Positions 2,393 through 2,629 of a stretch of 28,882 nt of DNA are shown here, one piece after another. The notes under the pieces were generated by a model. The model was not told the origin of the DNA. It did no database searches and saw nothing but the letters and a program-made list of their open reading frames with translations. This stretch comes from an uncultured Candidatus Bathyarchaeia archaeon. Its GTDB lineage: Archaea; Thermoproteota; Bathyarchaeia; RBG-16-48-13; JAGMEO01. The position numbers were made by a program, and so were the translations under genes. The DNA lies in contig CAYZTF010000001.1 of NCBI GenBank assembly GCA_964481305.1, positions 3,575 through 32,456 on the forward strand, written 5' to 3'. The first letter of the stretch is position 1, and each line of letters starts with the position of its first letter.

Positions 2393-2594
2393 TGGTGGGG
2401 CCGGAGAGATTTGAACTCTCGGCATTCGGGTCTCACCGCTCCAGAACCTCTTCATCCCACAGAGGTGGTCCGTACCCATGAATTATCATTCATGCTCTGG
2501 AGCCCGACCTTATGCTCGGAGACCACATCTCCGAGTGTCATACCTAGTTAGAGTCCGCCCATGAAAGCCATAGGCATTCACGGTCCACGGCCCC
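2393..2594 (-). tRNA. tRNA-Trp (CCA) with three introns: 10/11 (2553-2584, 32 nt), 25/26 (2509-2536, 28 nt), 37/38 (2432-2496, 65 nt); CCA encoded
   Basis: Spliced product GGGGCCGTGGTCTAACTAGGTATGACGTCGGGCTCCAGACCCGAATGCCGAGAGTTCAAATCTCTCCGGCCCCACCA folds as a canonical cloverleaf. Each insert is bounded by BHB-type motifs. Confidence 0.92.
2432..2496 (-). ncRNA. putative C/D-box guide RNA inside the tRNA-Trp anticodon intron (guide for Cm34)
   Basis: C'-like GATGAAGA, then guide TCTGGAGC (complement of G31-A38), then D-like GTGA. The N+5 rule lands on C34. Confidence 0.7.
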
Positions 2595-2629
2595 AACCGG
2601 CCCCGATCAGATTACAGAGATGGCCATTT

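Follow-up and report, generated by a model that had tools for sequence, protein, structure and literature searches.

Multi-Intron tRNA Genes in Archaea

Multi-intron tRNA genes have been described in Thermoproteales, where a gene may contain three BHB introns, one canonical and two non-canonical, and where the 25/26 site is one shared with the gene analysed here (PMC4090602, PMC4390854). Examples are the tRNA-Pro gene of Pyrobaculum islandicum, with introns at 25/26, 37/38 and 56/57, and a tRNA-Glu gene of P. calidifontis. The gene analysed here resembles these in its intron complement, and the likeness extends to an alpha/beta endonuclease with the crenarchaeal specific loop (PMC3241643). In contrast to the Thermoproteales, however, the host is a mesophilic sediment Bathyarchaeia archaeon, the isotype is Trp, one of the introns lies at 10/11, and the leader carries a copy of an acceptor strand. 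The first-pass annotation of this DNA had described triple-intron tRNAs as rare and known in Thermofilum. That statement requires revision, given that three introns have been published for Pyrobaculum (PMC4390854, PMC4090602) and up to five for Asgard archaea. According to the Asgard report, tRNA genes in that group contain up to five introns per gene, with many introns in the D-arm (10.64898/2026.10.13.758758). As in our case, D-arm introns were missed by annotators there, and gains were repeated and lineage-specific (10.64898/2026.10.13.758758; PMC11291895). Asgard archaea nevertheless belong to another phylum, and help from leader sequences is not described in the available part of that report.

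An intron at 3/4 in the acceptor stem of some Thermoproteales tRNAs, termed an extreme case in a review (PMC4090602), lies so near the 5′ end that its motif must compete with that stem; the host intron is comparable in this respect but occupies a different position, 10/11. In Haloferax volcanii and other Euryarchaeota, the tRNA-Trp intron lies at 37/38, is about 65 nt long and contains guides for C34 and position 39 (PMC11408192, PMC4090602). The present host belongs instead to Thermoproteota, and its 37/38 intron has only a weak terminal C box, GUGA as the D box and a guide for position 39 that has shifted register. Split tRNA genes, as in Nanoarchaeum equitans and Caldivirga, likewise rely on pairing by sequence beyond the mature tRNA to create the structure that the endonuclease requires (PMC4090602). 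There, the flanks pair mutually into the motif, whereas here the leader is proposed to pair with the 3′ acceptor strand within one contiguous transcript. Position 10/11 is missing from the partial list of intron positions in a review of the field (PMC4090602), and the papers in our literature search that name both Bathyarchaeia and tRNA introns mention the subject in passing only.

A tRNA-Trp Gene With Three Introns

The window, that is, the whole stretch of 28,882 nt analysed here, belongs to a 647-kb MAG that is 82% complete. A tRNA-Trp(CCA) gene of 202 nt occupies positions 2594..2393 on the minus strand of the window; G1 falls at 2594, and the encoded CCA ends with its A at 2393. It is interrupted by introns of 32 nt at 10/11, 28 nt at 25/26 and 65 nt at 37/38, and excision of all three leaves a 77-nt cloverleaf. 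The parts of the gene are as follows.

2585..2594, minus strand: exon 1, tRNA positions 1-10, the same as the 5′ end of orthologs without intron 1
2553-2584 (gene 11-42), minus strand: intron 1, 32 nt, between G10 and U11, strict BHB
2537..2552, minus strand: exon 2, tRNA positions 11-25
2509-2536 (gene 59-86), minus strand: intron 2, 28 nt, at 25/26, strict BHB
2497..2508, minus strand: exon 3, tRNA positions 26-37, with the anticodon CCA inside
2432-2496 (gene 99-163), minus strand: intron 3, 65 nt, at the canonical 37/38 site, relaxed BHB, from an alignment of 14 orthologs
2393..2431, minus strand: exon 4, tRNA positions 38-76

The spliced 77-mer was identified as tRNA-Trp(cca) by ARAGORN, which folded it with a normal acceptor stem, a D-arm containing a U13-U22 mismatch, an anticodon arm, a T-arm and a variable loop of 5 nt. 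This identification and the junctions seen in orthologs agree with the first-pass annotation on the gene, its Trp identity and all three intron positions; its figure of 125 intronic nucleotides out of 202 is exactly the sum of 32, 28 and 65. The unspliced gene gave no match with ARAGORN and none in an Rfam search at the gathering threshold, and a permissive Rfam search returned only a match of the 3′ end to the tmRNA model and a chance-level match to sR35. Standard tRNA finders overlook the gene, and annotations of genomes from this widespread lineage of sediments would consequently show no tRNA-Trp. The unspliced 202-nt RNA folds far better than shuffled sequences (z = -4.7).

Close relatives of a protein encoded in the window are titled Candidatus Bathyarchaeota or Bathyarchaeia, and the DNA runs containing the tRNA-Trp locus came from freshwater sediment, sediment, wastewater and soil. 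Contigs from four separate studies contain the locus. One of them covers the whole gene, a second extends from the 3′ end to past the 5′ end, and two run from base 2418 onward. The contig spanning the whole tRNA-Trp stretch shows a single difference, which falls in the intron-1 loop. Since an intron-less junction occurs in none of these contigs, the introns are not an assembly artefact. No paralogous copies of the three introns were found elsewhere in the host genome.

A search of the 82%-complete host assembly with ARAGORN in intron mode, combined with inspection for BHB motifs, found no second tRNA-Trp. Another intact tRNA-Trp gene, with this locus untranscribed, had been named in the first-pass annotation as one observation that would speak against its reading; the two other Trp calls proved to be a tRNA-Arg(CCG) with a textbook 37/38 motif, on contig C13, and a candidate on contig C5 that becomes tRNA-Gly(CCC) once cut at its BHB sites. 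Judged from sequence, the locus is a working and apparently the only tRNA-Trp gene of this sediment Bathyarchaeia archaeon. The incompleteness of the assembly, together with the failure of standard finders to detect the gene, would also fit a decaying or non-functional relic whose working counterpart lies in the unassembled 18%. We consider this very improbable, given that the exons are almost identical to those of orthologs while the introns diverge with compensatory changes, that both the encoded CCA and the promoter-like element have been retained, and that the same three-intron gene is the sole real Trp match in a related genome that is 93% complete (G003).

The surroundings of the gene are likewise rich in introns. 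Window regions 1256-2340 and 2704-2829 contain four more interrupted tRNA genes, located upstream and on the plus strand, together with a 5S rRNA gene just past tRNA-Trp. The four are those for Met(CAU), probably Ile(GAU), Ala(CGC) and Leu(UAA), the last with introns at 2227-2248 and 2263-2292, and all tRNAs of the cluster are interrupted.

Splice Motifs and Orthologous Genes

A BHB was defined as a 4-bp central helix between two 3-nt bulges on opposite strands, with the cut after the second bulge base; in a strict motif, all four central pairs (4/4) are formed, the inner helix has at least 5 bp and the outer helix at least 2 bp. A geometry scan of the gene returned two strict motifs and no others, one coinciding with the ends of intron 1 and the other with those of intron 2. 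In intron 1, the tRNA bases C5-U8 (CCGT) are paired with GCGG in 4/4 pairs, the bulges are G9-G10-A and A-C-U11, and the inner helix CCGTGAA/TTCATGG has 7 bp, with an outer helix (G3-G4/C12-U13) of 2 bp only. In intron 2, TATG and CATA form the central helix, likewise in 4/4 pairs, between bulges of ACA and AGG; its inner helix is 9 bp and its outer helix 2 bp long. The scan thereby reproduced the earlier descriptions of a full BHB at intron 1 (CCGT/GCGG, bulges GGA and ACT, CCGTGAA/TTCATGG) and a perfect one at 25/26 (TATG/CATA). Two strict motifs also arose in 21 of 500 dinucleotide shuffles, and the motif alone is therefore only modest evidence. The decisive support for the tRNA-Trp introns is comparative.

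Orthologs of tRNA-Trp were found in 24 of 41 relatives. The 37/38 intron is present in all fourteen genes compared and the 25/26 intron in eight (those of the host, G003 and G004, and L004, L005, L007, L009 and L016), whereas four relatives (L006, L008, L010 and L013) have the 37/38 intron only. Over the first 38 nt, L013 differs from the spliced host tRNA-Trp at 2 positions. The agreement of such uninterrupted orthologs with the spliced sequence at both D-arm junctions fixes the splice sites to the base. Conservation within intron 1 follows the motif: across 13 distinct sequences, the G9-G10-A/G bulge, the GCGG strand and the A-C-U bulge are invariant, and the inner helix covaries, its third pair being G-U, G-C or A-U and its fourth U-A or C-G, while the loop drifts freely.

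The short outer helix of intron 1 could be taken to mean that the 10/11 insertion is real but removed by a route other than EndA cleavage of the proposed motif, for example, with different boundaries or through trans-processing. There is little reason to expect this: if the cut is moved by a single base, the product no longer agrees with the orthologs; neither the 4-bp helix nor either 3-nt bulge varies across the 13 sequences; and the same geometry is found in tRNA-Gln and tRNA-Glu. We therefore regard such removal as highly unlikely and retain cleavage by EndA at the BHB as the probable route.

The 10/11 intron of tRNA-Trp occurs in three genera of the host's own family (represented by the host, G003 and G004, the G004 gene being broken over two contig ends). 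A search for the Trp 10/11 insertion pattern retrieved 2 of 401 genomes of the class, both in the host family; the pattern fits only about 8 of the 14 sampled orthologs, and the count is to be read as not found elsewhere among the genomes searched. With the same pattern, 14 true homologs of tRNA-Trp with a 10/11 intron were recovered from metagenome contigs. Other relatives are interrupted elsewhere. The tRNA-Trp gene L011 (genome G035) has a D-loop intron near 17/18, and a 43/44 intron is present in L016 and L018 (genomes G029 and G013), so that L016 also has three introns, at 25/26, 37/38 and 43/44. Within Bathyarchaeia, repeated intron gain has affected this one tRNA, at 10/11, 25/26 and 43/44 and near 17/18 in the D-loop, the sites differing between lineages.

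Introns at 10/11 in tRNA-Gln and tRNA-Glu

A census of host tRNA genes, based on BHB candidates and ARAGORN runs on the spliced products and thus crude and incomplete, revealed two further genes with an intron at 10/11.

G000:C51:2927-3039 (L141), minus strand: tRNA-Gln(UUG), with two D-arm introns, one of them at 10/11 and 21 nt long
G000:C6:2443-2571 (L142), minus strand: tRNA-Glu(UUC), with a 21-nt intron at 10/11 and an anticodon-loop intron

In both genes, bases 5-8 (CGGT) are paired with GCCG in the same geometry as in tRNA-Trp. Both introns are present in several families of the order, and the Gln intron together with its leader copy (see below) occurs in at least four of them (f1, f3, f4 and f7). 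Position 10/11 is a recurrent intron site in the host lineage and not a one-off.

The Glu intron resembles the Gln intron in length and ends. A separate peculiarity concerns the T-loop, in which U55 is near-universal among tRNAs: the T-loop UCCAAAU, with C at position 55, occurs in the host tRNA-Gly(CCC) (G000:C5:13911-14025) and in the tRNA-Glu(UUC) listed above (G000:C6:2443-2571).

A Leader Copy of the 5′ Acceptor Strand

The sequence preceding the tRNA-Trp gene contains two elements of interest.

2597..2604, minus strand, -10 to -3: leader copy GGGGCCGG of the 5′ acceptor strand, complementary to C65-C72
2627..2637, minus strand, about -43 to -33: A/T-rich TATA-like element; an equivalent aaaaaGGATATAT element is conserved in relatives

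By its position, the TATA-like element would set the start of transcription near -17, upstream of the leader copy, and the copy would then be transcribed. Across the genes with a 10/11 intron, leader copies are 6-8 nt long and each matches its own acceptor sequence. A copy was found in 17/17 tRNA-Trp genes with the intron and in 0/11 orthologs without it, in 7/7 and 0/6 tRNA-Gln genes, and in 8/8 and 0/8 tRNA-Glu genes, respectively; the relatives are non-independent samples, and each gene's intron/copy pattern may reflect few gain or loss events. In the host genome, the copies read AGCCCGG at -10 for tRNA-Gln and GCTCCG at -22 for tRNA-Glu. Only the three 10/11 genes among 15 host tRNA genes have such a copy, the 12 others having been checked and found to lack it. 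In G003, intron and copy are both present for Trp and Glu, and neither is present for Gln. The association between intron and leader copy is gene-specific, not genome-specific.

Such a copy might also have arisen as a neutral by-product, for example, by a small tandem duplication of the first bases of the gene, and have no role in splicing. The Trp copy and its spacer do resemble a 10-nt tandem repeat of the gene start, with 8/10 bases matching; moreover, the pattern in each gene could stem from few events, and the folding controls described below are not fully specific. Several observations nevertheless make this origin rather unlikely in our view, if still worth weighing. The Trp copy, located 2-5 nt before +1, is invariant over 13 diverged loci, whereas its spacer and flanks vary. 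Three genes, each with an acceptor sequence of its own, have such copies, the distances ranging over 2-16 nt, and none is found in any intron-lacking ortholog, including the G003 tRNA-Gln from the same family. The Glu copy in G002 and G004 is one base different, yet its pairing is kept through a G-U pair. A target-site duplication of the intron does not account for the repeats either, because what separates the two copies is a short spacer rather than the intron. The preferred reading is thus that the copy has a part in splicing. Our literature search found no paper on leader-assisted BHB folding; what appears to be new is that 10/11 introns are strictly coupled to an acceptor-strand mimic in the leader, for which a role in folding is plausible.

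Precursor Folding and a Proposed Splicing Route

Because the central helix of intron 1 takes up C5-U8, it excludes acceptor-stem pairs 5-7. The competition between these structures was evaluated using two-dimensional energy models, which take no account of tertiary structure or proteins. In precursors lacking a leader, the acceptor stem is favoured, and enforcing the intron-1 helix costs +6.8 kcal/mol in the host precursor, 11.6 kcal/mol in that of G003 and 6.1 kcal/mol in that of G004. When its own leader is included, the minimum-energy fold of the host precursor has the copy on the 3′ strand and contains the intron-1 helix (-101.6 vs. -94.1 kcal/mol). With the natural 16-nt leader, the minimum-energy folds of both the host and the G004 precursors pair the copy with the 3′ strand and form the motif. 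For G003 with its leader, enforcing the helix gives a fold 4.0 kcal/mol better than enforcing the acceptor stem, although the minimum-energy fold is a different one. Removal of intron 1 reduces the advantage of the copy-paired fold, calculated with the copy helix enforced, from -4.7 to about -1 kcal/mol.

The specificity of this effect was assessed by exchanging leaders. Only the cognate leader moved the Trp and Gln precursors to the splice-competent fold, and the result for Glu was less specific, with foreign leaders lowering the energy too. Leader swaps were used in preference to mononucleotide-shuffled leaders, which are a poor control because a G-rich leader often still pairs after shuffling; for G004, where the shuffled-leader control was weak, 60/100 shuffles also favoured the splice-competent fold.

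From the observed gene structure, motifs, conservation, covariation, enzyme genes and intron/copy association, together with these models, we infer where transcription starts, that splicing takes place, what the leader copy does, in which order the steps follow and that methylation occurs. The primary transcript would probably begin about 17 nt upstream of the gene and contain all three introns, each of which would be cut at its BHB by an alpha/beta splicing endonuclease of the crenarchaeal, broad-specificity type before an RtcB-type ligase joins the exons. Introns 1 and 2, being local hairpin motifs, could fold during transcription. The intron-1 motif requires tRNA bases 5-8 to pair with the 3′ end of the intron, an arrangement incompatible with the acceptor stem. 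The 8-nt leader copy could pair with the 3′ acceptor strand instead, leaving bases 5-8 available. Once intron 1 is gone, the advantage of the copy would nearly vanish, and the true acceptor stem and the D-arm could form, after which RNase P could remove the leader. Because the residual advantage of the copy is small, tertiary folding and RNase P might be able to pull the molecule to its native form. The box C/D-like elements of intron 3, described below, would be placed to guide 2′-O-methylation of C34.

Jointly, a working three-intron gene, splicing by the endonuclease, a leader copy that frees bases 5-8 and a putative guide within intron 3 form what we judge to be the best explanation of the locus, and we hold it with considerable confidence. 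A broader proposal is that 10/11 introns can persist only with a leader mimic of the 5′ acceptor strand, which would serve as an inbuilt aid to folding, holding the 3′ strand to let bases 5-8 enter the splice motif and forcing splicing before 5′ maturation; we incline towards this generalisation with noticeably less assurance. The pairing of 10/11 introns with leader copies offers a concrete, testable answer to the question of how introns survive where the splice motif clashes with the tRNA fold, and the leader-copy model predicts an order of processing in which splicing precedes RNase P.

Box C/D-Like Elements in Intron 3

The motif of intron 3 is relaxed. The anticodon stem serves as its outer helix, 3/4 central pairs are formed (with one U-U mismatch), and the inner helix has 2 bp. 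The following elements were recognised within the intron.

2469..2472, minus strand: D′-like box CGGA, which is CUGA in several relatives (e.g., L004, L005, L006 and L008)
2449..2455, minus strand: C′-like box AUGAAGA, nearly invariant among 14 orthologs
2437..2448, minus strand: conserved putative 12-nt guide that, as read from the sequence, pairs with C34 through its fifth base upstream of the D box
2433..2436, minus strand: D-like box GUGA, from the alignment of 14 orthologs

A short covarying stem joins the D′-like and C′-like boxes, which are kept in nearly all of the 14 orthologs; the terminal C box is not conserved. For a box C/D RNA, Rfam yielded only a chance-level sR35 match. In the relatives L003 and L004, both checked by hand, a second guide is in register and aimed at C39. 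In the host, the register of this guide (window 2473-2482) is shifted by 2, and only a 5-bp duplex aimed at C41 can be formed, so that position 39 is not addressed. In the host, C41 may have replaced C39 as the predicted target, or this guide may no longer function. The published median length of Trp introns with a nested box C/D RNA, 65 nt (PMC4090602), is also the length of intron 3. By analogy, intron 3 resembles the box C/D guide intron of Haloferax, a resemblance short of established membership in that family.

Splicing and Modification Enzymes

The host genome encodes two EndA paralogs. The first, at G000:C45:150-722, is similar to the catalytic alpha subunit of Aeropyrum pernix (3p1z_B, 1.8e-48) and keeps the catalytic Tyr, His and Lys. 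It aligns without gaps through the crenarchaeal specific loop, in which K44 is kept and R46 is replaced by K; it is this loop, with K44, that enables the enzyme to cut non-canonical sites (PMC3241643). In the second paralog, at G000:C2:176-802, the catalytic His is missing, as in a structural beta subunit. The predicted alpha/beta endonuclease of the host is thus of the crenarchaeal type with the broad-specificity loop.

RtcB was not found in the 82%-complete host assembly and is present in G001, G003 and G004, which belong to the same family as the host. The RtcB of G004 is in two pieces, at G004:C148:7064-7231 and G004:C27:20614-21756, corresponding to profile positions 1-53 and 53-426, a pattern that could reflect a contig break or a split or interrupted gene. 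As for modification, the methyltransferase fibrillarin is encoded in the host genome (G000:C24, 3.5e-94).
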